Notes: generated by a model not told the origin, from the letters alone. Shown: positions 25,199-42,278, numbered from the stretch's first letter. The stretch: 64,000 nt of DNA from Candidatus Chisholmbacteria bacterium (GCA_963704905.1 CAVPHZ010000002.1:203011-267010); one strand, 5' to 3'. Translations and numbers: made by a program.

Positions 25199-25217
25199 AT
25201 ATTCAGTGTAATTACTT

Positions 25218-26619: not shown

Positions 26620-26718
26620 AATTTCCTTTCTTTCTCAATTATACTCCCTAATGTTATTCGACCTATTTTAAATAATAGTAAATTGCTACTCGTTATGTAG
26701 TAGATCTATTTCTGATCT

Positions 26719-26794
26719 TGGGGTGGCTGACGGGATTTGAACCCGCAACATTCGCCTCCACAGGGCGATGCTCTACCATTGAGCTACAGCCACC
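26719..26794 (-). tRNA. tRNA-His (anticodon GTG), with extra 5' G-1 and encoded CCA
   Basis: Manual fold: G-1 GTGGCTG acceptor, D arm GCTC/GAGC, anticodon stem TCGCC/GGCGA with loop CTGTGGA, T arm GCGGG-TTCAAAT-CCCGT, discriminator C then CCA. Confidence 0.85.
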
Positions 26795-26799
26795 ATAAG

Positions 26800-27672
26800 C
26801 TATGACGAGTCAGACTCTCGTTCCCGAGAAGCGTCAAAGATAACACCCTCTTCCGCTCCAGAGCCTTGCTCTTCCAAATCAATCGCTTTCGCTGTTTCTT
26901 CTTCCGTTATTTCCTGATTCCCAGCCTTCATTGGTTCAGCATGTTCACTATGCATACCCTCACGCTGATTATCTCCCATCTGCACATCTGTTTCAGAGAT
27001 AACGGGTAGAATGTTATCGGTTTTCCAAATTCTTGCCTCTATTGTATCAATAATTAACCGATAAATCCGTCTTCCTTTTGAAAATCCAATCCGACTTATC
27101 GCGATAAAAAGGCGGAATACAAGTTGAAACGCCCAGAAAACCAGAAAAAACATTTGCCCGATCAAAGATCTTTTCGTTCCCTTTTGTCGCTTCTCGGTAG
27201 AAATCATCCAATCTGAAACACTTTCCTTATTATTATTTCGAGGATATTGATGTCGATGGTGTAAATCAATTGGTTTTTCTTGCTTGAGTTGATCAAGATT
27301 AGGCTCAAGCGTTCGATCAATATATTGTTTCTTAATCATGCTTTCCGTCAGTGGAAGTGCGCGATAGACAGGTTCTCCTGTTGTTGATCCATCCTTCTCA
27401 TCTTTATCTTGATGTAGTTGCGGTACGCTTTCCCGGCGTAACTGATCTTCAGCCTCATTCCCCTCAACATGACTCCTGGGTTCAAAGTGACCTGGTTTCG
27501 ACACTGCCCCCGGGGCAATTTGGTGCATCATTTCTTTCCCGATAGAAGTAACCGCATGGCTAAGAGCGCCAAAAGTATCTTCAGCAATATCACCAAATGC
27601 GCCGATTCTGAAGCTAATTCCTCGGGATCTTTTTGATTTGTTTTCTTCAGTAGGAGTGTTATCGTCAGACAT
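26800..27672 (-). CDS. Hypothetical acidic protein with a central transmembrane segment (290 aa)
   Basis: ATG start; Glu/Asp-rich termini; hydrophobic stretch LIGQMFFLVFWAFQLVFRLFIAISRIGF; no recognisable domain. Confidence 0.4.
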   Translation of the reverse strand: MSDDNTPTEENKSKRSRGISFRIGAFGDIAEDTFGALSHAVTSIGKEMMHQIAPGAVSKPGHFEPRSHVEGNEAEDQLRRESVPQLHQDKDEKDGSTTGEPVYRALPLTESMIKKQYIDRTLEPNLDQLKQEKPIDLHHRHQYPRNNNKESVSDWMISTEKRQKGTKRSLIGQMFFLVFWAFQLVFRLFIAISRIGFSKGRRIYRLIIDTIEARIWKTDNILPVISETDVQMGDNQREGMHSEHAEPMKAGNQEITEEETAKAIDLEEQGSGAEEGVIFDASRERESDSS

Positions 27673-27972
27673 TTGAGTTACTTGTCTGAAAATTTGTCAG
27701 TATCCTCAACCGCTCCTACAAGATTTGCCTCATCTGGGGGAATATCTCGGCGTGCTTTTTCATCCTTTTCCATCTCCTCAGCCAGGCTAAATGGCTTTCC
27801 AGGAGCAGGTTTATTTCCGATAACATCTTCCAAATTATCACTCCACATTATCATCAGATGATGTTGATGGCGTACTTCCGCTTACGGAATGTTCTCCTTC
27901 CTCAGCGGGAGTCATAATGTCTTCATCATCTTGATTAAGATCATTTTGATCTGTCATGCATCTCCCTTCTAG

Positions 27973-28152
27973 CTAACCCTTAGCTTTTGTTTCTTCCTGA
28001 CTTGCTTCGTCAAGAATAGCATAGTATGCATCCCAAAGTTCCTTGGCCACTTTATGATAACCTTTTCTGGTTGCCTGCTGGGCCTGCCACTTTATATCAT
28101 TGGCCAACTTTCTATCATAATACGCATCTTGCGAAGGATCATCATATCCCAT
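27973..28152 (-). CDS. Small hypothetical protein (59 aa; below ORF-track cutoff)
   Basis: ATG with AAAGGAAC RBS 5 nt upstream and a TATAAT box further upstream; peptide MGYDDPSQDAYYDRKLANDIKWQAQQATRKGYHKVAKELWDAYYAILDEASQEETKAKG. Confidence 0.3.
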   Translation of the reverse strand: MGYDDPSQDAYYDRKLANDIKWQAQQATRKGYHKVAKELWDAYYAILDEASQEETKAKG

Positions 28153-28289
28153 ATGTTCCTTTTTATTATACTGAATACTTAAATAAGTACATGTTTATAT
28201 TGTAAAATTTGTCATCAATATCTAGTGTTTACACTAAATATTTCTGCAGAGCAAATGAGAAACTGTGTTTATCAAAAATATTACAGTGC

Positions 28290-28362
28290 ACCCCCGGGAG
28301 GATTCGAACCTCCGACCTACTGCTTAGAAGGCAGTTGCTCTAATCCACTGAGCTACGGGGGC
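28290..28362 (-). tRNA. tRNA-Arg (anticodon TCT)
   Basis: Manual fold: acceptor GCCCCCG, D arm GCTC-AGTGGATTA-GAGC, anticodon stem ACTGC/GCAGT with loop CTTCTAA, T arm GGAGG-TTCGAAT-CCTCC. Confidence 0.85.
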
Positions 28363-28382
28363 TCATCAAATGAGCTATTTTG

Positions 28383-28455
28383 AGCGGGAGACGGGATTCG
28401 AACCCGCGACCTTCTCCTTGGAAGGGAGACGCTCTACCAACTGAGCTACTCCCGC
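28383..28455 (-). tRNA. tRNA-Gly (anticodon TCC)
   Basis: Manual fold: acceptor GCGGGAG/CTCCCGC, D arm GCTC-AGTTGGTA-GAGC, anticodon stem TCTCC/GGAGA with loop CTTCCAA, T arm GCGGG-TTCGAAT-CCCGT. Confidence 0.9.
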
Positions 28456-28485
28456 GAATGTCAATGAGTGGGAGTATAGCGAAGT

Positions 28486-28548
28486 TGGTTCTACCAACTG
28501 TTTACGCTGTAAAAAGTATTTTTACAGTGAGCTACTCCCGCGAAACAA
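28486..28548 (-). pseudogene. Rearranged tRNA-Gly 5' fragments (nt 1-14 fused to a CUGUAAAA trailer plus 21-nt hairpin, followed by nt 14-24)
   Basis: Minus-strand reading TTCGCGGGAGTAGCTCA|CTGTAAAAATACTTTTTACAG|CGTAAA|CAGTTGGTAGAACCAAC duplicates the first 14 nt and nt 14-24 of the adjacent tRNA-Gly(TCC), separated by a 9-bp hairpin. Confidence 0.4.
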
Positions 28549-28656
28549 TACAATATCTTATCATCTCTTAAAAAGAATCGGACATCCGATATCCAACTTC
28601 GAAATCTCATATTGTACGGGATTAACCTATCCAGTAATTGAGATCCGTTTATATTG

Positions 28657-28728
28657 TCGGGGCGGAAGGAATTGAACCTACTACCTCTCGGTCCCAAACC
28701 GAGCGTTCTACCGATGAACTACGCCCCG
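28657..28728 (-). tRNA. tRNA-Pro (anticodon TGG)
   Basis: Manual fold: C1-G72 acceptor (CGGGGCG), anticodon stem CTCGG/CCGAG with loop TTTGGGA, T arm GTAGG?-TTCAATT. Confidence 0.8.
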
Positions 28729-28852
28729 TAAAATACTATCTAAATGAACAAATCAATCACTCTGCCTACTACTCCAAACACTGTTATATGTGTTTATACC
28801 GTAAATCTCTAGAGAAACGTAGTTTTCTCTCATATTATCAAGAATTTTACAG

Positions 28853-28936
28853 TGCCGAGGGAGGGACTCGAACCCACACGGTGTTGCCACCACGAGATTT
28901 TAAGTCTCGCGCGTCTACCGATTCCGCCACCTCGGC
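28853..28936 (-). tRNA. tRNA-Leu (anticodon TAA), long variable arm
   Basis: Manual fold: acceptor GCCGAGG, D arm with GGCGGAATCGGTAGACGC, anticodon loop CTTAAAA, long variable arm, T arm GTGGG-TTCGAGT-CCCTC. Confidence 0.9.
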
Positions 28937-29019
28937 AGGGTAGTAGCTATTGTATCAAACTAATTTTAGTAAGGAAAAGTTTCTCCGAACCATAGTACAA
29001 TACAAAATTGATATAAATT

Positions 29020-29697
29020 ATGATACCGATTCGAGACCATAACCCATCTGGCCGCACTCCTTTTTTCACCTACGCATTGATATCAATCAACAGCTTGATC
29101 TTTCTCTTCATGATCACACTCTCCGAGCCAAGTTTAGAACAATTTGTTGATCAATTCGCTCTTATACCGGCAATGATCACCAATGGCCAGAATTTCTTTA
29201 CCCTAATTACGTCTATGTTTCTCCATGGCGGAATTGGTCATATTGTAGGAAATATGTTGTTTCTCAATATTTTCGGTGACAATCTGGAAAACGTATTAGG
29301 TCACGTCAAATTTCTACTCTATTACCTTATGGCAGGGCTGGCAGGTTCCTTGCTTCAGATAGTCTCCGATCCGACTTCAACAATCCCGAATCTTGGTGCT
29401 TCAGGTGCTATCGCTGGAATAATGGGGGGATACCTCTTGCTGTATCCTCGCCATAAAATCGACGTTCTGTTCTCATTCGGCCTATTTCTCCAAAAAGTTA
29501 CCCTTCCTGCCTACACTATGCTTTTTTACTGGTTTATAGCTCAACTATTTTCTGGAGTAGGGGAGTTAGCTTTTTCATTTACTGAAGGTGTGGCGTATTT
29601 CGCCCACGTAGGAGGTTTCTTAGCTGGTTATCTGACTCTATTGCCAATTAAAAACCGTCTAATTAAAGATAAGCCGAGATTTCTGGGATATTTTTAG
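29020..29697 (+). CDS. Rhomboid family intramembrane serine protease
   Basis: Multiple TM helices, catalytic GASGAIAGIMGGY (GxSG) motif and downstream His in FAHVGGFLAGY. Confidence 0.85.
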   Translation: MIPIRDHNPSGRTPFFTYALISINSLIFLFMITLSEPSLEQFVDQFALIPAMITNGQNFFTLITSMFLHGGIGHIVGNMLFLNIFGDNLENVLGHVKFLLYYLMAGLAGSLLQIVSDPTSTIPNLGASGAIAGIMGGYLLLYPRHKIDVLFSFGLFLQKVTLPAYTMLFYWFIAQLFSGVGELAFSFTEGVAYFAHVGGFLAGYLTLLPIKNRLIKDKPRFLGYF

Positions 29698-30344
29698 GTA
29701 CCTAGTGTGGCAATCGCTCTCTTCCCGCAAACTGGCCAAGCTCCTACTCCATCTTGAGAAATTTTAAATGCCGCTGTTTTAATTGACTCATCGGCTTGGA
29801 ATCGAAGCTCAGGGTTATGTGGAAGACCCATGGCTTTTCGGTTCGAAACCCATGTTCCCCGGGAAAATTGATACATACCCCCATATGGCCCATTTATCGC
29901 CTGGGGCCGGGAACCAGATTCACAATGGGCAATGGTCTTGAGGACATCTTTTGGTACGCTATATTCCTGTGAATACATGTCAAAGAGCGGTTCAAGAGGC
30001 ACTCCTGTTTCCGTCGTGTTAACTTGAACTTCTACTGTATCTGTTACCTCTTCAGTATCAGTAGTAGTCATTTCTATTCCCTCTGGCAGTTCTTCAATGA
30101 TTTCTCCTACAGTATCTCCTCGCTGAAAGCTTCGCATCATCATCACTTGTGTTTCAGAAACCTGTTGAAAATCTCTTGTTCGTGCCAAAAAATCAGCCTC
30201 TTCCACAGCCACAGTCATCGCTGCCTGAGGAGTAATTTTTTCTCGTTCAATAATAGTAGTTGATCGTTTTACGTTCAAAAAGGTAAGCACAGGAAAACTA
30301 GCCAACAGCATACCTAGAAAGAACGGTTTTGTTTGAATGCGCAT
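29694..30344 (-). CDS. Secreted protein with C-terminal Rpf-like transglycosylase domain
   Basis: N-terminal signal/TM, acidic Thr-rich linker, C-terminal IAHCESGSRPQAINGPYGGMYQFSRGTW resembling the resuscitation-promoting-factor transglycosylase-like fold. Confidence 0.55.
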   Translation of the reverse strand: MRIQTKPFFLGMLLASFPVLTFLNVKRSTTIIEREKITPQAAMTVAVEEADFLARTRDFQQVSETQVMMMRSFQRGDTVGEIIEELPEGIEMTTTDTEEVTDTVEVQVNTTETGVPLEPLFDMYSQEYSVPKDVLKTIAHCESGSRPQAINGPYGGMYQFSRGTWVSNRKAMGLPHNPELRFQADESIKTAAFKISQDGVGAWPVCGKRAIATLGT

Positions 30345-30470
30345 AAGTAAAAAAAGACCCGCAGGTCTTTGAGTTGTTGCATTATAGGATATTGTGAAAA
30401 AAAGTCAAGTCAGGGCTACTAGGATGATGCCATCGTGGATTTTCAGATGAGCATCTAGAAGGATTACAGC

Positions 30471-31655
30471 TCAGTTTACAAAAGACAATGCAATACCAGT
30501 TTTATTAGCTCGGCCGGTTCTCCCAATCCGATGGACATAATCTTCGTACGTCTGCGGAAGGTCATAATTGATGACATGGGAAATGTCATCTATGTCTAGA
30601 CCTCTGGAAGCGACATCAGTAGCTAAAAGAACTTGAACAACATTCTCTTTGAAACTCCTCAGCGCTAGTTGGCGTTGGTGTTGGGATTTATTTCCATGAA
30701 TTGCTGCAACTCGAAAACCTCTCTCTTGCAATGCTTTAGCTAACTTATTCATACCATATTTAGTCCGTCCAAACACCAATACTTTTTCAAAATCCTTCTG
30801 AATCAATAGATTATGCAAGATGTCAATTTTATTTCTCCCCTCCATTTTAATCACATCCTGATCGACATTATCGGTGATCGGTTTAGAATCGACAGATATT
30901 GTAACTGGATTCGTCAAAAAGCGTTTCATAATCCCATTAAGTTTTTCTGGTATTGTTGCCGAAAAGAATAATGACTGTCGGACACGAGGTAAATGGGAAA
31001 CGATATGCTTGATATCTCGAATAAATCCCATATCGAGCATTCGGTCCACCTCATCAAGTACAACAGTAGAAAAAGTTTCAAACCGAAGTACGTTACGCAT
31101 TTCTAAATCTCTCAATCTTCCAGGTGTACCAATGATAAAGTGAGGTCTTCGTCGGATCAATCCTATTTGACGGTTGATATTGACTCCTCCGATACACAAA
31201 GCAGAATATAAATGTAAGCCTCTTGAAAAAGATCGAAACTCTTCTTCAATTTGAATGGCTAACTCTCTTGTTGGTGTAATGACTAAAACATTTGATGAAT
31301 TATGATAAAAAATAGTATTGATAAGAGGAATTAAGAAAGCTGCCGTTTTTCCGGTTCCAGTATTAGCGACTCCCACCACATCTTTTTTCTCCAATATATG
31401 TGGAATGACTTTATCCTGAATCGGTGTAGGTTTCTCATAGCCACGATCTGAAATATTCTTCTTTATTTGGGCGTTTATAAGAAAATCACTAAACGAGTGT
31501 TGCGCAATATACACAACAGTAGATTTTTCAGTAGCCTTTTTTACTAGAAGAGATGGATCAAAAGTTTTCAAAACGTTGGATCGATTTCTTCCTCTTTGAT
31601 TAAACCCACCTCCGCGAAATCGACGCGAATATTGATATGACATATATACTTTCAT
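30471..31655 (-). CDS. DEAD-box ATP-dependent RNA helicase with N-terminal RGG-like segment; start uncertain
   Basis: Q motif region, ANTGTGKT (Walker A), DEVD (LDEVDRMLD), SAT, HRIGRTGRA. ORF-track TTG at 31685; candidate ATGs at 31655 and 31643. Confidence 0.9.
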   Translation of the reverse strand: MKVYMSYQYSRRFRGGGFNQRGRNRSNVLKTFDPSLLVKKATEKSTVVYIAQHSFSDFLINAQIKKNISDRGYEKPTPIQDKVIPHILEKKDVVGVANTGTGKTAAFLIPLINTIFYHNSSNVLVITPTRELAIQIEEEFRSFSRGLHLYSALCIGGVNINRQIGLIRRRPHFIIGTPGRLRDLEMRNVLRFETFSTVVLDEVDRMLDMGFIRDIKHIVSHLPRVRQSLFFSATIPEKLNGIMKRFLTNPVTISVDSKPITDNVDQDVIKMEGRNKIDILHNLLIQKDFEKVLVFGRTKYGMNKLAKALQERGFRVAAIHGNKSQHQRQLALRSFKENVVQVLLATDVASRGLDIDDISHVINYDLPQTYEDYVHRIGRTGRANKTGIALSFVN

Positions 31656-31991
31656 CAACAGATATCGGAAAAAGAAATTGTGCAAGAAGTTTGAAGTCGT
31701 AACTGACTCAGAGCAATTGCAAGCTTAAACCAATGACTGTTTTAATTAAATAAACAACTTGAGAAGTGTAACACGGGGTGATGCTGATTGCAAATACAGT
31801 GATTTATAATTTGCTGGCAGTCTGGGATGAAATGAAATACTATCCAAAATAATTACTAAAATCCCGGTCGAGACATAAAAAGTGGGTGCACAAACGGATG
31901 TTTTTCAAAGCCCCACCCTTTACTCATCAAAAATAGCTGCAACGTCATCTCCAGACGTTGATATACTGGTATGAAAGGATAAACACAAGAT

Positions 31992-32459
31992 ATGGCAATT
32001 TACTTAAGAGACATAATTCTCGGTGATAAAAAGAAGCTTGCCAAACTCGTCCGAAATTATCATCAAGAACTTTTTGGAGGAAGCAACCAATATAAATATC
32101 GATACCTTGATTCCTACTGGGTGGAAAACGATCGACACCCTTGCTACATCATGCTTGATGATATTGTTGTTGGCTTCGCATTAATTAACAAGCACACTAT
32201 ACTGTCGAAATCAGCAAATAACCTGGCAGAATTTTACATTAAGCCTGAATATCGGAAGAGAGGATTGGGAAACAAAGCTGCTAGAGAGGTCTTTAAAAGA
32301 TATCCCGGAAAATGGGAGGTAAGAGTTTTAAAAGAAAATGCACTTGCGTATTCCTTCTGGAAAAAGGTACTAAGTGTTTCCACCACAAAAAATTTCAAAG
32401 AAACGCTCCTTGATGAGTCAGAGTGGAAAGGGTCAGTATTTACTTTCTGGATAATTTAA
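31992..32459 (+). CDS. GNAT family N-acetyltransferase
   Basis: Acetyl-CoA binding motif A region VVGFALINKH...YIKPEYRKRGLGNKAAREVF (R-x-x-G-x-G/A). Confidence 0.6.
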   Translation: MAIYLRDIILGDKKKLAKLVRNYHQELFGGSNQYKYRYLDSYWVENDRHPCYIMLDDIVVGFALINKHTILSKSANNLAEFYIKPEYRKRGLGNKAAREVFKRYPGKWEVRVLKENALAYSFWKKVLSVSTTKNFKETLLDESEWKGSVFTFWII

Positions 32460-32674
32460 GACACTCTCAAGAAATTTTCAATCTCGGAAACGTACTAGAA
32501 CAGTAAATCGCTGGCTGGCAGCTTGGGATGAAATAAGGAATAAAGAATCTACAAATTACGTTTCTTTCTCCTAACTATTCCCAAAATTCTAACAGTTGAT
32601 TCTAAATCCAAGAATAACTGTTTTTCCCTAGGATAAAGATCCTAAGGAATTAATGATGCGTAGAAAAACTTAAG

Positions 32675-33259
32675 TTATGGGATTAAAATTACTTTTTCCA
32701 TGATGTTTTTATGAACATTTTCGATTGTTTGATCAGCAGTTATTTCTTCTAAAACATCTTTTTTCTTGTAATACTCAAGTGCTTGCTTTTCCCCTGATTT
32801 GTAAATTTCTAATCTGCTTTTAATTCTCTCTGGCGAGTCATGAAGTTCATCTGTCCCAGGATGAAGTGGTCTAGCTCTTTTTATAAGTCTTCTATATGAC
32901 TCCTCTTCGCTTAGGTTTAGATATATGACCAACTCAACTTGATATCCATATTTATCAATTTTTCTATCAAGGAATTTTGCTTGAGAAATATTTCTTGGAA
33001 ATCCGTCCATAATCCAGTCTCCTTTTGCATCGTCTTCTTTTAATCTCCTTTTCCATAAAACGAACATCTCGCTATCTGGAACGTATTTTCCTCTTCTTAA
33101 AGTATTTCTGCACCTCTTCCCAATCACACCCTTATCATTAGCTGCTGCATCTCTTATAAGTTCTCCAGAGTTTAATATTGGTATTTTTAATTTTTCCTTT
33201 AATAATTTCGCCTGAGTTCCCTTGCCTGATCCTTCAGCCCCAAATATTACTATGTGCAT
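32675..33259 (-). CDS. adk: Adenylate kinase (short type), in an AT-rich stretch
   Basis: P-loop GAEGSGKGTQA, NMP-binding GELIRD, DGFPRN motif. Local composition is visibly more AT-rich than flanking core genes. Confidence 0.75.
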   Translation of the reverse strand: MHIVIFGAEGSGKGTQAKLLKEKLKIPILNSGELIRDAAANDKGVIGKRCRNTLRRGKYVPDSEMFVLWKRRLKEDDAKGDWIMDGFPRNISQAKFLDRKIDKYGYQVELVIYLNLSEEESYRRLIKRARPLHPGTDELHDSPERIKSRLEIYKSGEKQALEYYKKKDVLEEITADQTIENVHKNIMEKVILIP

Positions 33260-33462
33260 GATATATTTTAGAATTCTTAATTTTCTTTCCTCCCCAAGGA
33301 TATTTTATAATTTCCAACTCATTTGGTTTACCTTATGGATAAACATATATAGTGCCCGTTAACTTCGCTCAGGGCGATTCTCTGCATAGATACATAGTAA
33401 AGATGAATGCTTGACTTTTTTTTGAGCTTAAATCCGTGAGCGAATGTATCGATTTAAATCGG

Positions 33463-33533
33463 CTGCGGGACTTGGACTCGAACCAAGACTGACGGCTTCA
33501 AAGGCCGCTGTCCTACCATTAGACGATCCCGCA
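33463..33533 (-). tRNA. tRNA-Gln (anticodon TTG)
   Basis: Manual fold: U1-A72 acceptor (TGCGGGA/TCCCGCA) typical of bacterial tRNA-Gln, 3-bp D stem, anticodon stem GCGGC/GCCGT with loop CTTTGAA, T arm CTTGG-TTCGAGT-CCAAG. Confidence 0.8.
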
Positions 33534-33578
33534 AAAAAACAACAATGTATATTTTACCAAAAATATTTGTAAGGAATA

Positions 33579-34850
33579 TCAGTTTCTCTGGATTGGTGTT
33601 TCTGTATTGATTGAAACACCATAAGAGCCACTCTGTAATAATTCGATCATTCTTCCTTGGATCTCGTATGCCTGTTTTTTTGATCTACCGATAATAACGT
33701 AGATAAGTTCATTTGATTTAAGAATGTTCTCAGAATTGATAAGAACACCTCGTTTTTCTTTATGGTCATACAATAACGTATCAAGTTGATCGAGAAGTGA
33801 TGAAAATTTAATCGATTTCCCATGAGGAAAGGAGAAGTGACTTCTTGAAATAATGTAGTAATCATCCATAAAATCTTTTCCTAATAACTTATAAACCACT
33901 CGGTATACATCTGTGCCTCCACTATTTCGCGTGTTAGACTCAGAAACATAAATTTGGTTGTTTTTAGAAGCTATCATGTCAATGTCAAAGTGACCACGAT
34001 ATCCTGCGGTACTAAATTTTTCAGCGATAAAATATCCTGTATCGATGATCTTTGTGCTAATTCGATCGTTGATCAAATCGTCATTAATATCTAAGCCGAT
34101 AAATTCTCCTTTTTGAGTCACTTCCATCAAACAATAATAGAGCATATCAATTCGTCCATTTTTTTGAATCTTAAATTCTATACTAGGAAATCCACCCCCG
34201 ATACCGTACTTAATATTGATGAGATCTTCGATCACAATTGGAAAGTTATCCCAATATTTATCGCTGTTGAAATTCCGGAGAATAGCGGCAACACACTCTC
34301 GGTATGTCTGAGGCAGATCGCCATTTCTAAATATCAGAATACCGCTTCCACCGCTTCCCTTATTTGTCTTGATGACAACACCTTTTTGCTTAATGTATTT
34401 GTTGGCAGCAATATTAGCTGCAACTTCTCTTCCGACACATATAATACCTTCTGGCATGATAAAATCAGGTTCCTGCAACCTGCTTTGTTGCGCGAGTTGA
34501 CGGATCCCTGATTTACTACCGAAGAAATTAACTGTCCAAGCACAATCAATCTCAGGTGTTTCAGGCGTGTAAACCTCAAGACCTAACTCAACGAGTGTTT
34601 CTTTGAGCTTATAGAATTCAGCCGAAGCAGAGTAGCTTATTAACGTAATCTTTTTATATAATTTTGCTTTTTCAACCAAAATATTCAACGATTTTGTATC
34701 ACTCAGAAGATCTTCGCAAATGAGATCTGATTTTTTCTCAGGGGTAATAATTTCGGCTGACTTGTACCCGAGCAGTTGTTTGGCATAACTTTGAAATTCA
34801 GGTGAAATTTTCCTAGGACTGATAAATATGAATTCAGGCTCGGTAGCCAT
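33579..34850 (-). CDS. ATP-grasp fold protein (putative carboxylate-amine ligase)
   Basis: Central/C-terminal region with ATP-grasp-like Gly-rich and acidic motifs (SGGSGILIF, ...SESNTRNSGGTD); AT-rich codon usage. ORF-track TTG 34856; first ATG 34850. Confidence 0.4.
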   Translation of the reverse strand: MATEPEFIFISPRKISPEFQSYAKQLLGYKSAEIITPEKKSDLICEDLLSDTKSLNILVEKAKLYKKITLISYSASAEFYKLKETLVELGLEVYTPETPEIDCAWTVNFFGSKSGIRQLAQQSRLQEPDFIMPEGIICVGREVAANIAANKYIKQKGVVIKTNKGSGGSGILIFRNGDLPQTYRECVAAILRNFNSDKYWDNFPIVIEDLINIKYGIGGGFPSIEFKIQKNGRIDMLYYCLMEVTQKGEFIGLDINDDLINDRISTKIIDTGYFIAEKFSTAGYRGHFDIDMIASKNNQIYVSESNTRNSGGTDVYRVVYKLLGKDFMDDYYIISRSHFSFPHGKSIKFSSLLDQLDTLLYDHKEKRGVLINSENILKSNELIYVIIGRSKKQAYEIQGRMIELLQSGSYGVSINTETPIQRN

Positions 34851-35099
34851 GCTCAAAAAAAAGCAATCTGTTGTTTCTTCACAACGAGCGATTTCTTCAA
34901 TCCTCTTTTTCGGAGTAGATAAATAGTTAATATACGACCACTCATCTTCAACGATATTGAAAACATATACTAACAGCTCATTTCGCAGAGGTTCCTTGTC
35001 GTTTTGTTTAAATTGTAGGAGTGCAGAAGTATTTTTCGTTGTAATAAATCCTTTATCTAATAGTATTGATTAACTTCGTAATTCAATAGCTATCATTTG

Positions 35100-35172
<73 letters not shown>

Positions 35173-35261
35173 TTCTTCGCAGTATACCAAACTCAGCTTT
35201 AGGTGTTTCACTGTAAATTTCATGAGAGACTTTGTTTCACTACTTCAATGAAATTTACTAG

Positions 35262-35334
35262 TGCCAGGGAGAGGAGTCGAACCTCTATCTCATGTTTTTC
35301 AGACACGCGCCGTGACCACCTTGGCTACCCTGGC
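35262..35334 (-). tRNA. tRNA-Phe (anticodon GAA), atypical D arm
   Basis: Manual fold: acceptor GCCAGGG/CCCTGGC, anticodon stem CGTGT/ACATG (one G-U) with loop CTGAAAA, T arm AGAGG-TTCGACT-CCTCT. D arm has a short 3-bp stem and long loop. Confidence 0.75.
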
Positions 35335-35418
35335 TATAAATCAATTCCCGATTCAGACTAAACAGTTTTTCTGTATTTGTAAAGTTGTGTTTGTACTCAA
35401 ACTCAATAGCAATTTCGG

Positions 35419-35492
35419 TGGCCGCTGCAGGGATCGAACCTGCGACCTCCCGGATGTAAACCGGACGCTCTAACCAGCTGAGCTAAGCGGCC
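35419..35492 (-). tRNA. tRNA-Val (anticodon TAC)
   Basis: Manual fold: acceptor GGCCGCT/AGCGGCC, D arm GCTC-AGCTGGTTA-GAGC, anticodon loop TTTACAT, T arm GCAGG-TTCGATC-CCTGC. Confidence 0.9.
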
Positions 35493-35534
35493 CCTACCTT
35501 AGTATTTAGACTGTAAGATCTACTGATTTTACAG

Positions 35535-35619
35535 TGCCGAGAAGAGGACTCGAACCTCCACGCCCATAATGGGCACATGCTCCTGAAGCATGCGCGTCTA
35601 CCAATTCCGCCATCTCGGC
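35535..35619 (-). tRNA. tRNA-Leu (anticodon CAG)
   Basis: Manual fold: acceptor GCCGAGA, anticodon stem CATGC/GCATG with loop TTCAGGA, long variable arm, T arm GGAGG-TTCGAGT-CCTCT. Confidence 0.9.
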
Positions 35620-35660
35620 TCTGGTCAGTGTTTACACTGTAAAATGTAAACATTTTACAG

Positions 35661-35744
35661 TGGGCAAGAGAGGACTCGAACCTCCACGCTCGTAAGAGCA
35701 CTACGTCCTCAACGTAGCCTGTCTGCCAATTCCAGCACTTGCCC
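35661..35744 (-). tRNA. tRNA-Leu (anticodon GAG)
   Basis: Manual fold: acceptor GGGCAAG/CTTGCCC, anticodon stem CTACG/CGTAG with loop TTGAGGA, long variable arm, T arm GGAGG-TTCGAGT-CCTCT. Confidence 0.9.
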
Positions 35745-35930
35745 TAATTTTCTGTCAAACCGAAAATTCTTATCAACATTTGATCGTATATGCTGTCAGT
35801 TTTACGGATGTTAGCGAACAGAGGCAAGTCTAAAGCATATACTAAAACTCTCAATTTACCTACTCGCCTGACAGAAATTTATTATATCACGCGGAAATAT
35901 GTACTCCTAGAAATTGAAGAGGGGGAGTGA

Positions 35931-36677
35931 CTAAAAAGTGAGGAGTAATTTTCTAAATAATTTTTTACGCTTCTTCGCATAGTCGGGAAACTTATTTTTC
36001 AGAGCCAAAACGACATGTTCAGCTGCATCTTGAATATTCATATCTGCAGTGTTTATAACCAGATCATAATAGTTGGCATTTGAAATATCTTTGTTAAAAT
36101 ACTGGCTGATAAATTGCTTCCGATGTGTATCAGTGTCCTTAATAACGTGGATAGCCTTATCCCTGGAAATACCCTCATGCTTAACAGCTCTTTCAACGCG
36201 GACTAAATACGGAGCTTGAATTCTCACATGGAGTCCGCTATTGAATGGGGTAACGAAATTTGCTCCACGACCAAGAATTACCACTTCCCCTTTTATAGCT
36301 GCCGAAAGTATTACCGAACTCAGATATCGCATGTACTGGATATCTGAGACATAATCGGGGTTAAACATACTATGTACCATGTCTTCAATAAAGTTTCTCC
36401 CTCGCTCATCAACAGATTGAACAAGCGCCTTACGTTTTCGAGCGCTACTCGCCAAATCGCTAATCAGCTTTTTATTGTAGTAATCAAAACTCAACCATTT
36501 TGAAACTAATTTGGCGACCGGTTTTCCACCGCTACCAGGTTCTCTGGAAATGGTTATAAATGGTTGAGTGAACTCAATTTCTTCGCCATCCAACTGCAAC
36601 GTTTCTGTACGTTTCAGCTCAACTCTAGAAGAACCGCTAAATGCTTTATTGACAAGTTTATCGTACGTACGCGCCAT
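35931..36677 (-). CDS. Cytidylate kinase-like family protein (P-loop NTPase, Cytidylate_kin2-like)
   Basis: ITISREPGSGG P-loop followed by VAKLVSKWLSFDYYNKKLI; overall similarity to the archaeal/bacterial cytidylate-kinase-like family. Confidence 0.55.
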   Translation of the reverse strand: MARTYDKLVNKAFSGSSRVELKRTETLQLDGEEIEFTQPFITISREPGSGGKPVAKLVSKWLSFDYYNKKLISDLASSARKRKALVQSVDERGRNFIEDMVHSMFNPDYVSDIQYMRYLSSVILSAAIKGEVVILGRGANFVTPFNSGLHVRIQAPYLVRVERAVKHEGISRDKAIHVIKDTDTHRKQFISQYFNKDISNANYYDLVINTADMNIQDAAEHVVLALKNKFPDYAKKRKKLFRKLLLTF

Positions 36678-36767
36678 AGTTTGCTAAACCATACACAAAT
36701 TACTACTCAGGGTCAATAAATCACCAATACATCTCATGAAGGGCGTTTTGATATAATCTTTACGCTC

Positions 36768-36841
36768 GCCCCAGTAGCTCAGTGGATTAGAGCATCTGTC
36801 TTCGGAACAGAGGGTCGGGGGTTCGAATCCCTCCTGGGGCA
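36768..36841 (+). tRNA. tRNA-Arg (anticodon TCG)
   Basis: Manual fold: acceptor GCCCCAG/CTGGGGC, D arm GCTC-AGTGGATTA-GAGC, anticodon stem TCTGT/ACAGA with loop CTTCGGA, T arm GGGGG-TTCGAAT-CCCTC. Extended -10 TGATATAAT 11 nt upstream. Confidence 0.9.
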
Positions 36842-36858
36842 CAACCAATGGAAAAATC

Positions 36859-37134
36859 ATGCAAATAGACACTATGAATTATTCACAGTGGTACGTGTAC
36901 ATAGCGCAGTGCTACGATGGTTCTCTCTATACAGGAATAACCACAGACCCAATACGAAGAGAGTTGGAGCATAATACCGATAATGTCTTAGGTGCTAGAT
37001 CCTTAAGATATAAGCGACCAGTGAAGATTGTCTATACGGAGACACATGCTACAAGATCGGATGCTACTTTACGGGAACATGCTATTAAGAGCCGGAATAG
37101 AGGTTATAAATTGAAATTAATTCAGGAGAAATAA
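36859..37134 (+). CDS. GIY-YIG nuclease superfamily protein (UPF0213-like)
   Basis: WYVYIAQCYDGSLYTGITTDPIRRELEHN matches the GIY-YIG UPF0213 pattern (YVYI..C.DGSLYTG.T.D..RR..EHN). Confidence 0.75.
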   Translation: MQIDTMNYSQWYVYIAQCYDGSLYTGITTDPIRRELEHNTDNVLGARSLRYKRPVKIVYTETHATRSDATLREHAIKSRNRGYKLKLIQEK

Positions 37135-37198
37135 CATAGTGAGTATCCTGAACATTAAAGAATTTTAGGTTTACTCAAAATAAAGCTCTGTATTTTAA

Positions 37199-37270
37199 GG
37201 GCCCGTAGCTCAGCGGTAGAGCAGTTGCCTCTTAAGCAATTGGTCGAAGGTTCGAATCCTTCCGGGCTCA
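37199..37270 (+). tRNA. tRNA-Lys (anticodon CTT)
   Basis: Manual fold: acceptor GGGCCCG, D arm GCTC-AGCGGTA-GAGC, anticodon stem GTTGC/GCAAT with loop CTCTTAA, T arm GAAGG-TTCGAAT-CCTTC. Confidence 0.9.
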
Positions 37271-37600
37271 CAAAAAAAGAAATCGGGTTGGGAGTGTGGG
37301 CAGCACTGGCTGCGCTCACCTCCGCAGATAGATCTGCAAAGGCAAAATCCAGATTCGCCGAGAGCCGCCCGTTAAAAAGAATGAAGAAAAACGTAAGTTT
37401 TAAAGAACTTATTTTTAACTTAAATGGCCTAACCGGCGGAACCAGTTAGTAATTATTTACAGCTGTCCGAATAGGTCATTAAAAACAAATACTTTTTTTC
37501 AACTGGTTTCATATTATATATAAACATTTTTACGAAAACAAAACATTATCGATAGAGATGTGAATGTAACAAAAAAAACTATTAAATTAGATTGTAAAAT

Positions 37601-38605
37601 ATGAGCAACGAAACGACACCACAATCTGAATTAAATTCACAGCTTAGAAACGCTGTATTTTCATTAAGTCTTACTGATAATCAGTCAAATTTATCATTTA
37701 GTCCTCGCGTGCAAAGATTTTTTGATGGAGGAATGCATACACCACTGCAACAATTATCTTTTCTACAATCTTGGGGGTCGCTTATACCCCCATCGGAACT
37801 TGAGGTAAAAAGACAGTGGTATAATCCAAAACCTAGACTTCAGGACGGCCTTGCAATATACCCAAGTTTAACTGGGTTTCCGTCAGATATTTTTATGTCT
37901 ATTGAAAACGAACCTACCCTATTATCGCAAGTTACCGATAAAATCAATCATGCTTCCAATGCAGTACTTTTGGGGGTGATAAGTATACGAAGTGTTATAG
38001 ACACAGCTACCTACTTAAAAGAGAAAGGATTTAAAGGTAGATTAACTGTCTATGATATTCAGGAAGCACCCTTAGAAATCGATAGAATATATCAAGAATT
38101 TGGATTACTACCCAAAGAAATTACTTTTGAATTTGTACAGCAAGATGTATTGAAAATAGAAAAAGATACCAGCGCAGATTTAATAATAAGTGATGTGTTA
38201 GGTTATTATCTTACACCAGAGCAATATCAAACATTAGGAAATGTAATTTCTCGAATGTTAAAACAACATGGGTTATGGATAACACGAGAGCTAGTAGAAC
38301 CTAACGGTCCACCTGAGCCGGAAGAAAGAGATGCATCAGGAAAAAGAGAAAGTGATCCTATCAATCCATTTAACCAATATATTGAAAAGCTTTTTGGTTT
38401 TAAATTAGATACTAAAATTATTGATGAGTTTGAAAAAACGAAATGGGTAATAGTACCAACATACACAAGAAAAAGTTTAGATGAATATACAAGTAGTATT
38501 CCTATTGAATTAAAAATGTTAGGTTTAATACCTATAACAACAGTCAAACAAATCGAATCTGAAAATCCAAGAATTTTTAATTCAGTTGTTTATCGTAAGA
38601 ATTAA
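37601..38605 (+). CDS. Hypothetical protein (334 aa), possibly a degenerate Rossmann/methyltransferase-like fold
   Basis: ATG start in an AT-rich region; weak class I MTase-like beta-strand/acidic pattern (RLTVYDIQE ... ADLIISDV) but no Gly-rich motif I. Confidence 0.35.
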   Translation: MSNETTPQSELNSQLRNAVFSLSLTDNQSNLSFSPRVQRFFDGGMHTPLQQLSFLQSWGSLIPPSELEVKRQWYNPKPRLQDGLAIYPSLTGFPSDIFMSIENEPTLLSQVTDKINHASNAVLLGVISIRSVIDTATYLKEKGFKGRLTVYDIQEAPLEIDRIYQEFGLLPKEITFEFVQQDVLKIEKDTSADLIISDVLGYYLTPEQYQTLGNVISRMLKQHGLWITRELVEPNGPPEPEERDASGKRESDPINPFNQYIEKLFGFKLDTKIIDEFEKTKWVIVPTYTRKSLDEYTSSIPIELKMLGLIPITTVKQIESENPRIFNSVVYRKN

Positions 38606-38779
38606 ATGCTCGGTTTAGCCGAGCAAAAATCGCTAGCGCAAAAAATAACTGAAGCGCGGCGGGTTGGATCGCCGCGCTTGAGTAGCGAGCTCCGCGAAGC
38701 GGGACGAACTAACAATTTGTCTTAAATGAGTTCTAATATTTTCGAAAACGTTCACAAAAAATAGAAACATCATTACCAT

Positions 38780-39121
38780 ATGTCAAACAGTTTTAAAGGC
38801 TTAATTTTCACCAATCACGCTCTCCAACGGATGCATGAGAGGAAACTCTCTCAAAATGATGTCTGGGCTGTTTGGTATAAGCCAGATCAATCACGCTTTG
38901 CTAAAAGCAAAGGAGCATGGATTTACTATAAAACTTGGAATAATCAAAAAGTGGAAGTTGTTGCGAAAAAGAACCCATCCAATGAATGGGTCATCCTTTC
39001 TGTCTGGTCAAAAGAAACCACGAAAGAAAATTCATCTGCTCTACCCATTAAACTACCACAAAGATCGACTCTTCGAAATGTGTTCGATAAAATTCTCCCC
39101 AAGCACATCAATTCCAAGTAA
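38780..39121 (+). CDS. Hypothetical protein with N-terminal HALQRMHER motif (DUF4258-like, toxin-like small protein)
   Basis: LIFTNHALQRMHERKLSQNDV resembles the conserved N-terminus of the DUF4258 family; 113 aa; no obvious partner antitoxin gene adjacent. Confidence 0.35.
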   Translation: MSNSFKGLIFTNHALQRMHERKLSQNDVWAVWYKPDQSRFAKSKGAWIYYKTWNNQKVEVVAKKNPSNEWVILSVWSKETTKENSSALPIKLPQRSTLRNVFDKILPKHINSK

Positions 39122-39378
39122 AACTCACATAAAATTCAGTGAGTAATGAAATTAATTATCAAATGGTTCCAAGAAATGTAAAGTGGTAAGAATGCAAGTA
39201 AAAGTAAACGGATAGAGTAAATATAAAGTATTACATTTCAGAAATAATTATTGGAGCAGACAAAGACAAAACATATCCTTCCTTGACATTCCATCTCAAA
39301 ATATGTCACGATTGATATGAATTGACTATTTACACCAGTTTAAAAGGTTGATAACGTTTTCAGGTACCTGCCGCCATT

Positions 39379-39990
39379 ATGAAACGCTTATTCATCGTCC
39401 TCACATGGTTTCCAGCAACAATCGTTACGTTATTTTTTAGTCTCCAAACCTACGCCCACATCAGCAGAACCGAAGAAATTCAATCACTTATAGCTGCAGA
39501 AACGCAACGCATAACACAGACACAAACACCATTCTTGGCATATGCCGCCATTCCACTGGCAGCAAACGACATCAAAACCGCAATTCGAACCGGTGATGCA
39601 AGACCAGTCATGATCGATCTTTATCTGGAAAGATATGCCTCTCCAATGGCTGGATATGGGGAATTCATATTTAAAACAGCCCAACAATACAACATCGATC
39701 CATATTTATTTGTGGCAATCGCTCAGCAAGAGTCAAACCTAGGCAAGAAGATGCCCTCTGACGACTGCCACAATGCCTGGGGATATGGAATTCACTCAAA
39801 AGGCACACTCTGCTTCGATTCCTGGGAAGAAGGGATCGAATCTGTCATGAAAGGTATCTCAGAAAATTACTTGAGTAGGGGTCTTCAAGAACCAGAGGAA
39901 ATTATGAAAATCTACACACCAAAATCAAACGGCTCATGGGCACATGGGGTAAATCAGTTCCTCGATGAACTTCGAACGGGTGAGTATTAA
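39379..39990 (+). CDS. Secreted protein, possible peptidoglycan hydrolase (glucosaminidase/lysozyme-like)
   Basis: Signal peptide; segment IDPYLFVAIAQQESNLGKK resembles the catalytic-Glu region of FlgJ-type glucosaminidase/lysozyme-like folds. Weak assignment. Confidence 0.35.
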   Translation: MKRLFIVLTWFPATIVTLFFSLQTYAHISRTEEIQSLIAAETQRITQTQTPFLAYAAIPLAANDIKTAIRTGDARPVMIDLYLERYASPMAGYGEFIFKTAQQYNIDPYLFVAIAQQESNLGKKMPSDDCHNAWGYGIHSKGTLCFDSWEEGIESVMKGISENYLSRGLQEPEEIMKIYTPKSNGSWAHGVNQFLDELRTGEY

Positions 39991-40062
39991 CCATATTCCT
40001 CAAACCTTCCAATTATTTCTCAAGAAGAGTAAAATACGCATGTTTCGTATATTTCTATACAC

Positions 40063-40146
40063 GCCGGGGTGGCGGAATTGGTAGACGCGTACGGTTTAGG
40101 ACCGTATGGACTTTTGTCCTTGGAGGTTCGAGTCCTCTCCTCGGCA
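40063..40146 (+). tRNA. tRNA-Leu (anticodon TAG)
   Basis: Manual fold: acceptor GCCGGGG/CCTCGGC (one G-U), anticodon stem TACGG/CCGTA with loop TTTAGGA, long variable arm, T arm GGAGG-TTCGAGT-CCTCT. Confidence 0.9.
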
Positions 40147-40414
40147 CACGAATATACTGAAATGTTTACATCAAAGAGTATAATGACGGATGTCCTCATT
40201 GAGATTCGATTAAAGCAATGTTTACATTGAGAAACGCAGTGACCAAGTGTTTACACCGACCAACGGAGTGAGGAAGTGGCTAAGTTCTATTCGAAAATTA
40301 AATCTCGCGTAAAGCTCGCATACCGCACACCCAATGCCTATAGGCGTGCAGTTAAATTCGAAAAAATACGTAATTCATCTAACGCTCAGCCAAAACCAAA
40401 GGAGACTCATAACA

Positions 40415-41308
40415 ATGACAAAAAAAGTTAAACAGATAACCAAAGACCCTGATGGAACAATTCACATCAAACTGACAATTTCCTGGGAAAAAGTCAAAAC
40501 TGCATACAACAAGGCCTTACTCGATTCAAAAAAAACACTCGAGGTAAAAGGGTTTCGCAAGGGTAAAGCTCCAGACAAAATTGTTGAGGAGCAAGTAGGG
40601 AAACAGTCACTCTATACGCAAGCGTTACAATACATTTTACCTGAAGCATACGCTGAAAAAGTAAAACAGTTAAAACTCAAACCGATTGTCAGTCCCAAGG
40701 TGGAGCCCAACAGCCTTGAAGAAGGTCAAACCTGGGAACTTACCGCAACATTGGCTGAAAAACCATCCATTAAACTTGGCGACTATAAAAAAATTGTGAT
40801 AGGTGCAAAGGCTGCTAGCAAAATCTGGACTCCAGGAAAAGATACCGACTCCCCAAAACAACAAGATGACACCGTACAACAAAAAGAAGCCTCTCTCGAT
40901 GAACGGCTGGCAAAAATCTTTGATGAACTTATTAACGAGGTGAAATTTGACCTACCAAAATTTCTCATCGAAGAACAAGTAAATCGCCAACTTTCTCGTC
41001 TCTTGGAACAAATAGAAAAACTTGGTCTTTCTCTGGAGCAATACCTTATCTCTCTGGGCAAAACTAGCGATCAATTACGAAAAGAATACCACCAAGAAGC
41101 CGAGCGAACGCTGAGACTTGAGCTGATCTTAAATGAAATTGCCAATGATCTGAAAACAACTGTTTTTGAAGAAGAAGTAGATAGACTTATAGATTCAGTC
41201 GGCGATGAGAAGCTGAAGGAAACATTGAAAAGTAACGCTCATGAGCGAGATGCCATCCGGGCCAGTTTACGAAAACGAAAAGTGACCGACGAACTGCTCA
41301 AAATGTAA
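40415..41308 (+). CDS. tig: Trigger factor (short form, apparently lacking the PPIase domain)
   Basis: N-terminal ribosome-binding signature GFRKGKAP and the trigger-factor N/C-domain pattern. ATG at 40415 preceded by AAAGGAG RBS; ORF-track start 40334 is upstream non-ATG. Confidence 0.75.
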   Translation: MTKKVKQITKDPDGTIHIKLTISWEKVKTAYNKALLDSKKTLEVKGFRKGKAPDKIVEEQVGKQSLYTQALQYILPEAYAEKVKQLKLKPIVSPKVEPNSLEEGQTWELTATLAEKPSIKLGDYKKIVIGAKAASKIWTPGKDTDSPKQQDDTVQQKEASLDERLAKIFDELINEVKFDLPKFLIEEQVNRQLSRLLEQIEKLGLSLEQYLISLGKTSDQLRKEYHQEAERTLRLELILNEIANDLKTTVFEEEVDRLIDSVGDEKLKETLKSNAHERDAIRASLRKRKVTDELLKM

Positions 41309-41416
41309 TTATGATTTAATATCCCATAATATTCTTGACTTGGAAGAATATTTATGCTAATATTCGTCAAACTTCCTCAAGCAGGAAGTATATTTTGGTA
41401 CTGTACTTGAGCAATT

Positions 41417-42049
41417 ATGAATAACAAGAAAAAACAAAACAACTTCCGTTCAGACAGTTTCTTTGAAGCTTTTCGAGAACTTGGGGGTGGGACTCGTCAG
41501 GCTGCTAAGGATGCTGCCATGGGTATTGGTGGAGATATGATTCGCCAAGTCACCCAAAAGAACTGGACTCCACAGCCACTTTCCGGTGAAATTTCCATGG
41601 GAGAACATCTTGATATCGACATAGAAATACAGAGAAGGGAAAAAGACATCATCAAGAAAGAGCGGTCCCACCTTGAGTATGTAAGAAGAGAAGAACAGCT
41701 TGTGTTTAATAGGAAAGAAGAACAACTAAAAGAACAAATAAAATCCATCCAAGAGGAACTAAAGAAAGAACTCGAAAAACTCGCCGAAGAAGCCGGAGGA
41801 CTAGTTGGAGAACTTGAAATTGCAGTCGAGCAAACAATTGTCAGCCCTGGTACGTATCATCTAAACTTTTTCGATAAAATCCGACAACTCTTTATCTTGC
41901 TCAGAAAACGTGTTCATGAATCTAAAACCTGGATGCACACCGTCAATAGTCGATCCTCACACAGATCATTCTATTGGGGTAGTGTCGGCAAGTCGGGAAC
42001 CAAATTCATGCTCTCTCAAGAGAGATATATGTCTACTCAGGCTGGATAA
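41417..42049 (+). CDS. Hypothetical coiled-coil protein (210 aa)
   Basis: Charged heptad-like region (EEQLKEQIKSIQEELKKELEKLAEE); no recognisable domain. Confidence 0.35.
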   Translation: MNNKKKQNNFRSDSFFEAFRELGGGTRQAAKDAAMGIGGDMIRQVTQKNWTPQPLSGEISMGEHLDIDIEIQRREKDIIKKERSHLEYVRREEQLVFNRKEEQLKEQIKSIQEELKKELEKLAEEAGGLVGELEIAVEQTIVSPGTYHLNFFDKIRQLFILLRKRVHESKTWMHTVNSRSSHRSFYWGSVGKSGTKFMLSQERYMSTQAG

Positions 42050-42082
42050 CCTCTTACGAATTCAATAAGTTTTTTTTAGTGC

Positions 42083-42265: not shown

Positions 42266-42278
42266 TTTCTAAAGGAAT

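Follow-up and report, generated by a model that had tools for sequence, protein, structure and literature searches.

A lineage-specific family of short palindromic repeats in tRNA-flanking spacers and the trigger-factor leader of a Microgenomates bacterium

What is the near-palindromic 12-mer ARTGTTTACAYT that recurs beside tRNA genes and upstream of tig, the trigger-factor gene, in a 64-kb stretch of DNA assigned to a Candidatus Chisholmbacteria bacterium (GCA_963704905.1, CAVPHZ010000002.1:203011-267010), and does it serve as a site for a protein, as a structure in RNA, or not at all? We refer to the whole stretch analysed as the window, and all counts given for the host genome come from these 64 kb. 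The window is cellular DNA that places its host in the Patescibacteria/Microgenomates of the candidate phyla radiation (CPR), near Ca. Chisholmbacteria: it encodes iPGM, PGK, PFOR, UvrABC, LexA, ThrRS, IF3, L20 and RNase III, and its trigger factor has its best named relative in Ca. Chisholmbacteria, at 55% identity. It holds 15 tRNA genes, mostly without an encoded CCA, and a gene order (tRNA-Leu(tag), tig, DUF5660 ... tRNA-Val(gac), thrS) that is common to Microgenomates. The analysis described here supports well the definition of the motif as a lineage-specific family of short, AT-rich, palindromic spacer repeats with the core TGTTTACA, non-coding and located 3' of CCA-less tRNAs. Equally well supported are its two forms: a composite module in tRNA trailers and a 29-nucleotide (nt) tandem array in the spacer that leads from tRNA-Leu(tag) to a small open reading frame (ORF) and tig. 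Regarding function, we propose at a probability of roughly 35% that the motif is a candidate sequence-specific protein-binding site on DNA, of the operator type. A search of the literature found nothing relevant to the motif.

Expected numbers of sites were derived from dinucleotide-preserving shuffles of the window. By this measure the exact 12-mer is present at four sites against 0.07 expected, a number reached in none of 100 shuffles, and eight sites are found with up to one mismatch, against 1.76 expected. Two of these lie within genes, at positions 2765 and 45546, and are probably chance occurrences. The other six, hereafter the good copies, are all non-coding, in a window of which the non-coding fraction is 14%, and each of them follows a tRNA gene when read in the sense of that gene's transcription. 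A recurring, intergenic and tRNA-linked palindrome, as proposed in a preliminary description of this DNA, is thus borne out, whereas its inventory of copies required revision. One copy, given as 28497-28509, in fact spans 28497-28508 (ACTGTTTACGCT; 12 nt rather than 13, with two mismatches); another, termed inverted and placed at 35644-35656, lies at 35643-35654; and copies implied to be separate are partly duplicates, those at 40217 and 40246 belonging to one 29-nt tandem repeat and that at 35627 having a decayed duplicate at 35501.

The core 8-mer or its complement occurs seven times in the window, about three occurrences being expected. Throughout the six good copies the whole 8-mer is invariant, its central TT included, while the apexes of other trailer hairpins vary freely. 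Positions 2 and 11 (R/Y) are complementary in all six, as G-C in three and A-T in three, and two-fold symmetry is apparent in palindromes of 5+2+5 nt that stretch to 14-24 bp at sites A, C, D and F.

Two larger structures, the trailer module and the tandem array, contain the 12-mers as parts; their coordinates are collected in Table 1. Read on the tRNA strand, the module has the form CA/CTGTAAA-(variable self-pairing centre)-TTTACAG/YG/TAAACAC and abuts the 3' ends of CCA-less tRNAs. It is represented by five copies with a hairpin, a sixth that is truncated and a lone palindrome, and measures about 20-80 nt. The five trailers in which (CA)CTGTAAA pairs with a downstream TTTACAG(TG) are those of tRNA-Leu(gag), tRNA-Leu(cag), tRNA-Leu(taa), tRNA-Phe and a pseudo-tRNA-Gly fragment; their inner stems differ in sequence and remain paired (AUG/CAU, AUC/GAU, UUCU/AGAG, UUUCAU/AUGAAA). 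The arrangement CTGTAA...TTACAG is accordingly found five times on the minus strand, each time abutting a tRNA 3' end, against a Markov expectation of 0.68 per 64 kb and a background of 0.74 per 64 kb in 2 Mb of related loci.

Individual modules illustrate how the 12-mers are embedded. The hairpin of T1 begins at tRNA positions 72/73; site D is its apex, and site C forms the junction of its 3' arm with a TAAACAC box. T2 is a decayed duplicate of T1. In T3 the hairpin precedes TATAAACAC, a stretch that pairs with GTGTTTG (28776-28797). T5 interrupts a duplicated 5' fragment of tRNA-Gly(tcc), in the order GCGGGAGTAGCTCA, module, CAGTTGGTAGA, the real gene lying 86 nt downstream; positions 28528-28544 are identical to 28442-28458 over 17 nt, and the pseudo-tRNA looks as if it had been interrupted by an insertion at CA. 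Site A follows tRNA-Arg(tct) at a distance of 52 nt and precedes a 59-aa minus-strand ORF (27973-28152) by about 70 nt; the RNA fold of the extended palindrome at site A is -10.1 kcal/mol.

Table 1. Positions in the window of motif copies, trailer modules (T1 to T6), array units (U1 to U4) and the genes downstream of the array
Feature	Coordinates	Strand	Description
Site A	28224-28235	+	exact 12-mer, AGTGTTTACACT, within a 24-nt imperfect palindrome, ATATCTAGTGTTTACACTAAATAT (28218-28241)
T6	28262-28288	-	truncated module directly after tRNA-Arg(tct), CA/CTGTAATATTTTTGATAAACACAG, then site A
T5	28495-28546	-	module CTGTAAAAATACTTTTTACAG/CG/TAAACA; includes degenerate copy 28497-28508
T3	28776-28852	-	after tRNA-Leu(taa); hairpin CTGTAAAATTCT...AGAGATTTACGG (28799-28852)
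T4	35202-35261	-	after tRNA-Phe; hairpin CTAGTAAATTTCAT...ATGAAATTTACAG, then box TGAAACACC
T2	35501-35534	-	after tRNA-Leu(cag), CTGTAAAATCAGTAGATCTTACAG/TC/TAAATACT; 12-mer AGTATTTAGACT (35501-35512)
T1	35624-35662	-	fills the 40-nt spacer between tRNA-Leu(gag) and tRNA-Leu(cag); 28-nt hairpin CACTGTAAAATGTTTACATTTTACAGTG (35635-35662)
Site C	35627-35638	+	exact 12-mer; CAGTGTAAACACTG on the tRNA strand
Site D	35643-35654	-	exact 12-mer
Tandem array	40159-40275	+	four 28-29-nt units RTG-TTTACAYY-N17, tRNA-Leu(tag) to small ORF
U1 (site E)	40161-40172		non-coding copy with one mismatch
U2	40189-40200		degenerate unit, GATGTCCTCATT
U3 (site F)	40217-40228	+	exact 12-mer
U4 (site G)	40246-40257		non-coding copy with one mismatch
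Small ORF	40276-40431	+	51 aa, basic, MAKFYSKIKSRVKLAYRTPNAYRR..., unannotated; ribosome-binding site (RBS) GGAGTGAGG
tig	40415-41308	+	short trigger factor, 297 aa; Pfam N and C domains only

The second structure has a period of 29 nt with 77% matches, and its last unit ends at the GTG start codon of the small ORF. A spaced array of three copies had been described between tRNA-Leu(tag) and tig; the repeated spacing holds, but the array comprises four tandem units, the second of which is degenerate. Likewise, the association with tRNA genes stands, whereas the gene directly downstream of the array is not tig but the small ORF, which overlaps the start of tig. Orthologues of this ORF precede tig in at least eight relatives (loci L082, L084, L001/L085, L193, L195, L196, L200 and L202, the prefix L denoting loci of related organisms); it is called as a 49-aa gene in L193/L194, and the window ORF has no Pfam or NCBIfam match. 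Its start lies 6 nt after tRNA-Leu(tag) in L200 and 6 nt after a TGCTAGAAT box in L202. These short distances suggest that the small-ORF mRNA may be leaderless or generated by processing, and the interval of only 6 nt in L200 implies co-transcription with tRNA-Leu(tag). The PPIase (peptidyl-prolyl isomerase) domain of the trigger factor was not hit by Pfam, and a length of about 280-320 aa is common to the 120 homologues listed. Beyond tig, a sub-threshold Rfam match to Phe_leader (42127-42267, plus strand; 35.5 bits against a gathering threshold of 55, E = 0.011), upstream of a 538-aa ORF, is probably due to chance.

Phylogenetic footprinting, which the preliminary description had suggested as a check, recovered the box at the orthologous spacer of two relatives, L196 and L084, and left most relatives without the motif. 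In L196 the spacer between tRNA-Leu(tag) and the small ORF carries two boxes, GGTTTACACCGAGAAA and ATGTTCACATTGAGGAG (also written GGTTTACACCGAG and ATGTTCACATTGAG), placed 29 nt apart, which is the period of the window array. L084 has one box, ATATTTACATCAATGAG, close in sequence to site E, and L199 a weaker antisense match; no box is present in the orthologous spacers of L193, L195, L200, L202, L082, L085/L001 and L198. This spacer ranges from 6 to 178 nt across the family, whose trigger factors are about 50-60% identical pairwise in a star-like pattern, and in the relatives carrying a box the trigger factor is only 56-59% identical to that of the window. Ten family spacers (752 nt) contain four matches against a background of 4.5e-4 per nt, and shuffling gives P = 0.0096 for any of the ten having two same-strand matches, the matching period being left out of that count. 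Since it is present in these relatives, the box appears to be older than the host genome and to persist at one orthologous site, with a patchy distribution. The broader scan covered 80 genome loci around tig and the three closest of 80 metagenome loci. The genome loci show no enrichment of the core 8-mer (20 seen against 64 expected) and lack the 12-mer, none of the three metagenome loci has a copy in the spacer, and the tRNA trailers of Chisholmbacteria are without the module. Window spacers and family loci have no more 10-mers in common than chance would give (226 against 240), and for this reason an 11-mer common to L084 near site A was discounted.

We consider an operator to remain the single most likely function of the motif. 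On the plus strand, the 11-mer AGTGTTTACAC is antisense to tRNA transcription at sites A and C and sense at site G; because it occurs in both orientations, only a reader of double-stranded DNA would see the three sites as the same. The invariance of the 8-mer and its central TT, set against the variability of other apexes, indicates that sequence, and not structure alone, has been kept. Together, the invariant core and the two orientations point either to recognition in double-stranded DNA or to the absence of any function. Sites E, G and U2 show no fold as RNA (0 to -0.8 kcal/mol), the modules have no consistent preference for folding on the sense strand, and site E falls within the 16-nt spacer of a promoter-like CTGAAA-N16-TATAAT. 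A role in cis is plausible inasmuch as the motif is non-random, non-coding, tRNA-linked and recurrent at an orthologous spacer. In the mechanism that we envisage, a protein would read the conserved 8-10-bp core in double-stranded DNA, binding as a dimer to the near-palindrome. In the tig leader it would encounter a phased array with one site between a -35-like hexamer and a perfect -10 and the others downstream, and the bound protein might modulate transcription of the small ORF and tig, as well as read-through or re-initiation between tRNA genes.

A number of observations weigh against an operator. No candidate regulator was identified and no regulator gene adjoins the motif; the only clear transcription factor encoded in the window is LexA (8458-9078), which has no box in its own lexA/uvrB promoter region. 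The distance from promoter-like elements is not constant, a -10-like sequence being offset by 6 nt at site E and by 19 nt at site A and lacking at sites C, D, F and G; promoter-like matches in the region are at chance level, and sites C and D share a spacer of 40 nt that separates two tRNA genes. Other promoters of translation genes in the window (thrS, infC, rplT, pheST, tyrS) do not have the motif, its distribution among relatives is patchy, with most of them lacking it, and unit 1 of L196 is not palindromic. Perfect R/Y complementarity of positions 2 and 11 would not be expected of independent operator half-sites. Finally, much of the recurrence reflects duplication, and the 12-mers are fragments of larger modules. 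The suggestion first made for this motif, of a dimeric operator or a recombination or processing site, is therefore retained in part: a cis role is plausible, but no regulator was identified, the promoter offset is not constant, and the copies are patchy and partly duplicated. A more specific version, in which the box would be the operator of a putative regulator in one Microgenomates family that couples tRNA clusters with the small ORF/trigger-factor operon, we judge distinctly unlikely.

Among known systems, operators of dimeric helix-turn-helix proteins offer a close parallel to this proposal, and in particular the TyrR box, TGTAAA-N6-TTTACA, recognised by the gammaproteobacterial protein TyrR; no TyrR homologue was seen here, although no search was aimed at one. 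Like these, the motif is a short non-coding palindrome with TGTAAA/TTTACA half-sites; as with dimeric helix-turn-helix operators, several sites are phased upstream of an operon and one (site E) lies between -35-like and -10-like hexamers. Here, however, the half-sites overlap (TGT-TT-ACA) instead of standing 6 bp apart as in the TyrR box, and, unlike dimeric helix-turn-helix operators, the sites keep no fixed geometry with respect to promoters and are in some cases located between neighbouring tRNA genes. Iteron or sopC-like arrays resemble the leader in its four contiguous 28-29-nt units, each headed by a 10-12-bp palindrome, and in a period conserved in a relative; they differ in that the present array is chromosomal, lies between a tRNA and a translated gene with no replication or partition gene nearby, and has units that overlap the RBS and start codon of the downstream ORF.

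The strongest competitor of an operator, which we regard as possible though somewhat unlikely, is that the repeats have no function of their own and are relics of duplication and recombination, or a small non-autonomous mobile element. Under this scheme the AT-rich palindromic trailer of one tRNA-Leu was copied to other tRNA flanks, by recombination in conserved tRNA segments, tandem duplication, hairpin-templated repair or insertion at 'CA' by tRNA ends, and the 12-mers would be debris. Tandem duplications are indeed seen, both in the tRNA cluster, where the tRNA-Leu(cag) and tRNA-Leu(gag) genes with their trailers constitute a 126-nt repeat of 80% identity, and in the 29-nt leader unit, where U3 and U4 are 76-77% identical; the tRNA-Leu(tag) trailer is in turn homologous to that of tRNA-Leu(gag). 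The order of genes is also disturbed. In the window tRNA-Leu(gag) precedes tRNA-Leu(cag) in transcription order (35534-35744, minus strand), whereas the usual Microgenomates order is Leu(cag), Leu(gag), Val(tac), Phe, and the swapped order is common only to L197 (344-538). On the minus strand of L197, at 230-360, there are three copies of the last 17 nt of tRNA-Leu(cag) with its trailer (AATCCTCTCACCTGCACAAGTAATGA), two of them in tandem with a 25-nt period, and the real tRNA-Leu(gag) gene is preceded by a duplicated fragment of its 5' part. From the 126-nt repeat, the array, the homologous trailers, the swapped order and these fragments, the tRNA flanks of the family appear prone to duplication. 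Whatever the function, it is well supported that the copy number of the motif grew by local tandem duplication, with flank exchange among clustered tRNA genes a probable contributor.

The modules themselves provide further support for relics. CA...CA flanks are found at T1, T3, T4, T5 and T6, T5 interrupts the duplicated tRNA-Gly fragment, folding shows no strand preference, the motif is patchy among relatives, and the orthologous spacer varies widely in length. Opposing this, L196 has both the box and its 29-nt period at the orthologous site although the trigger factors are only about 59% identical, a distance at which neutral non-coding DNA should be randomised. Moreover, no copy occurs outside tRNA flanks in the 64 kb, there is no target-site duplication other than possibly CA, no transposase-like Pfam match was obtained among the window ORFs scanned, and the modules range in length from 19 to about 55 nt, unlike a family of miniature inverted-repeat transposable elements.

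Two further classes of known repeats invite comparison. Repetitive extragenic palindromes and their mosaics (REP/BIME), and Correia- or RPE-like repeats, are similarly short, imperfect palindromes of intergenic, transcribed DNA that are often clustered, present in both orientations, lineage-specific and patchy, and REP/BIME sequences are likewise able to form hairpins at RNA 3' ends. In contrast to REP/BIME, the present repeats are AT-rich, much shorter and tied to tRNA 3' flanks; they number about a dozen copies in 64 kb, all at three loci, a GTAG-type head is missing, and neither a RAYT nor a transposase gene was observed in the window. Palindromic or 'double-hairpin' repeats also flank tRNA genes in organelle and reduced genomes, and have been proposed as processing signals or mobile elements. 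As a general analogy, these share with our case a small genome, palindromes beside tRNAs, a rearranged tRNA order and tRNA fragments, but the window belongs to a bacterial (CPR) chromosome and there is no sequence relationship.

Two other features of the tRNA clusters may be recorded. In L193 (1112-1290), L194 (652-830) and L198 (1412-1690), tRNA-Leu(tag) is seemingly nested in another tRNA-Leu-like gene, the 5' and 3' halves of the outer gene flanking the inner one as if it lay in an intron or insertion of the anticodon region; the insert in L198 is about 270 nt. In the window, a 91-aa ORF consisting of a stand-alone GIY-YIG nuclease domain (36859-37134, plus strand) lies between tRNA-Arg(tcg) and tRNA-Lys(ctt), a gap of only 4-63 nt in the relatives L082 and L197.

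A third reading places the function in RNA, as stem-loops in the 3' trailers of pre-tRNAs and in the small ORF/tig leader, where they would direct RNases (RNase Z, RNase III, 3' exonucleases) or hold them off, protect processed ends, or serve as targets of an RNA-binding protein; we think it unlikely. Its appeal derives from the location of every copy in a probably transcribed spacer immediately after a tRNA, and from five trailer hairpins that start exactly at the tRNA 3' end with the base CUGUAAA/UUUACAG and inner stems that stay paired. The T1 hairpin folds at -14 kcal/mol (z-score -3.4), the complementarity of positions 2 and 11 is complete, U2 retains its arms AUG/CAU despite an altered loop, and an RNase III is encoded in the window (62086-62769). 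Yet the transcript would read UGUAAACA in tRNA trailers and UGUUUACA in the leader and the T1 apex, so that no single RNA sequence is shared. The 12-mers alone form stems of just 3-5 bp, leaving E, G and U2 unfolded and F at only -3 kcal/mol, and four of the seven modules (T2, T4, T5, T6) fold better on the antisense strand. Hairpins at tRNA ends are not a general trait of Microgenomates, the structure of trailers and leaders being alike across 356 tRNAs (z -0.57 and -0.59, respectively), and the copies have no U-tract, GC-rich stem or Rfam match.

Several narrower identities were also set aside. A generic hairpin after every Microgenomates tRNA was rejected on the equal structure of trailers and leaders, and selection on a sense-strand RNA through G-U pairs on the lack of a consistent strand preference. 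No site was called as an intrinsic terminator; the stems are AU-rich and no T-run follows, and canonical terminators occur elsewhere (38679-38652 and 30370-30353). A search of region 24000-44000 with Rfam 15, with E up to 1, returned only tRNAs, together with sub-threshold matches elsewhere. An RNAalifold consensus pairs the CAY of the box with the RTG start codon and shows covariation of the window with L196, but comprises only 3 bp with a folding term of -0.45 kcal/mol. An upstream ORF beginning 'MFTL...' was dismissed, as two synonymous differences between the window and L196 boxes are too few and 'MFTL' is a translation of the motif, and a 9-nt identity between site E and the anticodon loop of tRNA-Val(tac) (GTTTACATC) is not significant (P of about 0.08).

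It is very improbable that the box is a core promoter element of the sigma-70 type, with TTTACA as -35 or TACAYT as -10 for downstream tRNAs or the small ORF. In its favour, TTTACA agrees with TTGACA at five of six positions, TACACT and TACATT resemble the TATACT -10 upstream of both window tRNA-Gly genes, and inter-tRNA spacers of relatives are evidently promoter locations, since in nearly every one a canonical TGnTATAAT precedes the next tRNA by 8-13 nt (for example in L047, L054, L043, L045 and L038). Against it, none of the TTTACA hexamers is followed by a -10-like hexamer at 16-18 nt. Read as a -10, half of the copies (TACATC, TACACC) are without the essential T at -7, which is missing at site E, site G, L196 unit 1 and L084; the TG is offset by one position from the extended -10 register, sites A, B and C are antisense to the neighbouring tRNA genes, and promoter-like matches are at chance level. 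As an observation in its own right, nearly every tRNA gene, including those within clusters, has an extended -10 (TGnTAnAAT) 8-13 nt before the mature 5' end, as seen in L004, L038, L043, L045, L047 and L054 and, in the window, upstream of Leu(taa), Gln, Gly(gcc) and Arg(tcg); a separate extended -10 for each gene implies that Microgenomates tRNAs are near-leaderless and individually transcribed.

Several established DNA elements were also considered and set aside. The absence of a match to LexA boxes, noted at the outset, is upheld: neither the region between lexA and uvrB (9079-9208) nor the sequence upstream of uvrA contains a TGTTTACA-like site. The lexA gene itself is divergently adjacent to uvrB, and uvrA, a transglutaminase-like gene and uvrC follow (8458-17523), in a compact SOS/nucleotide-excision-repair cluster; the 130-nt spacer between lexA and uvrB showed no obvious LexA box of a known type. 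The leader is not a CRISPR array, its four units being contiguous and 54-77% alike, with the last holding the RBS of the next gene. A phage origin was rejected because the 28 single matches of the 16-mer TTTACAGTGTAAACAC in viral contigs are near chance by a rough estimate of collection size. To our knowledge, none of the parS (TGTTNCACGTGAAACA), DnaA-box, CopY-box (TACAnnTGTA), attC, serine-recombinase or DNA-uptake sequences fits.

The value of the finding is modest, for the evidence describes a lineage-restricted repeat and establishes no mechanism. CPR bacteria cannot be grown alone, and their cis-regulatory DNA and RNA processing signals are almost unknown, so that a motif common to tRNA clusters and the trigger-factor operon would offer a rare handle on gene regulation in this group. 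Should the repeats prove to be duplication debris, they would document the reshuffling of tRNA flanks in reduced genomes, through swapped tRNA-Leu order, tRNA fragments and expanding spacers. If instead the box is the operator of a regulator common to the tRNA clusters and the small ORF/trigger-factor operon, it would define a compact translation and nascent-chain regulon in a bacterium of minimal genome, and its phased 29-nt operator array would be conserved across genera.

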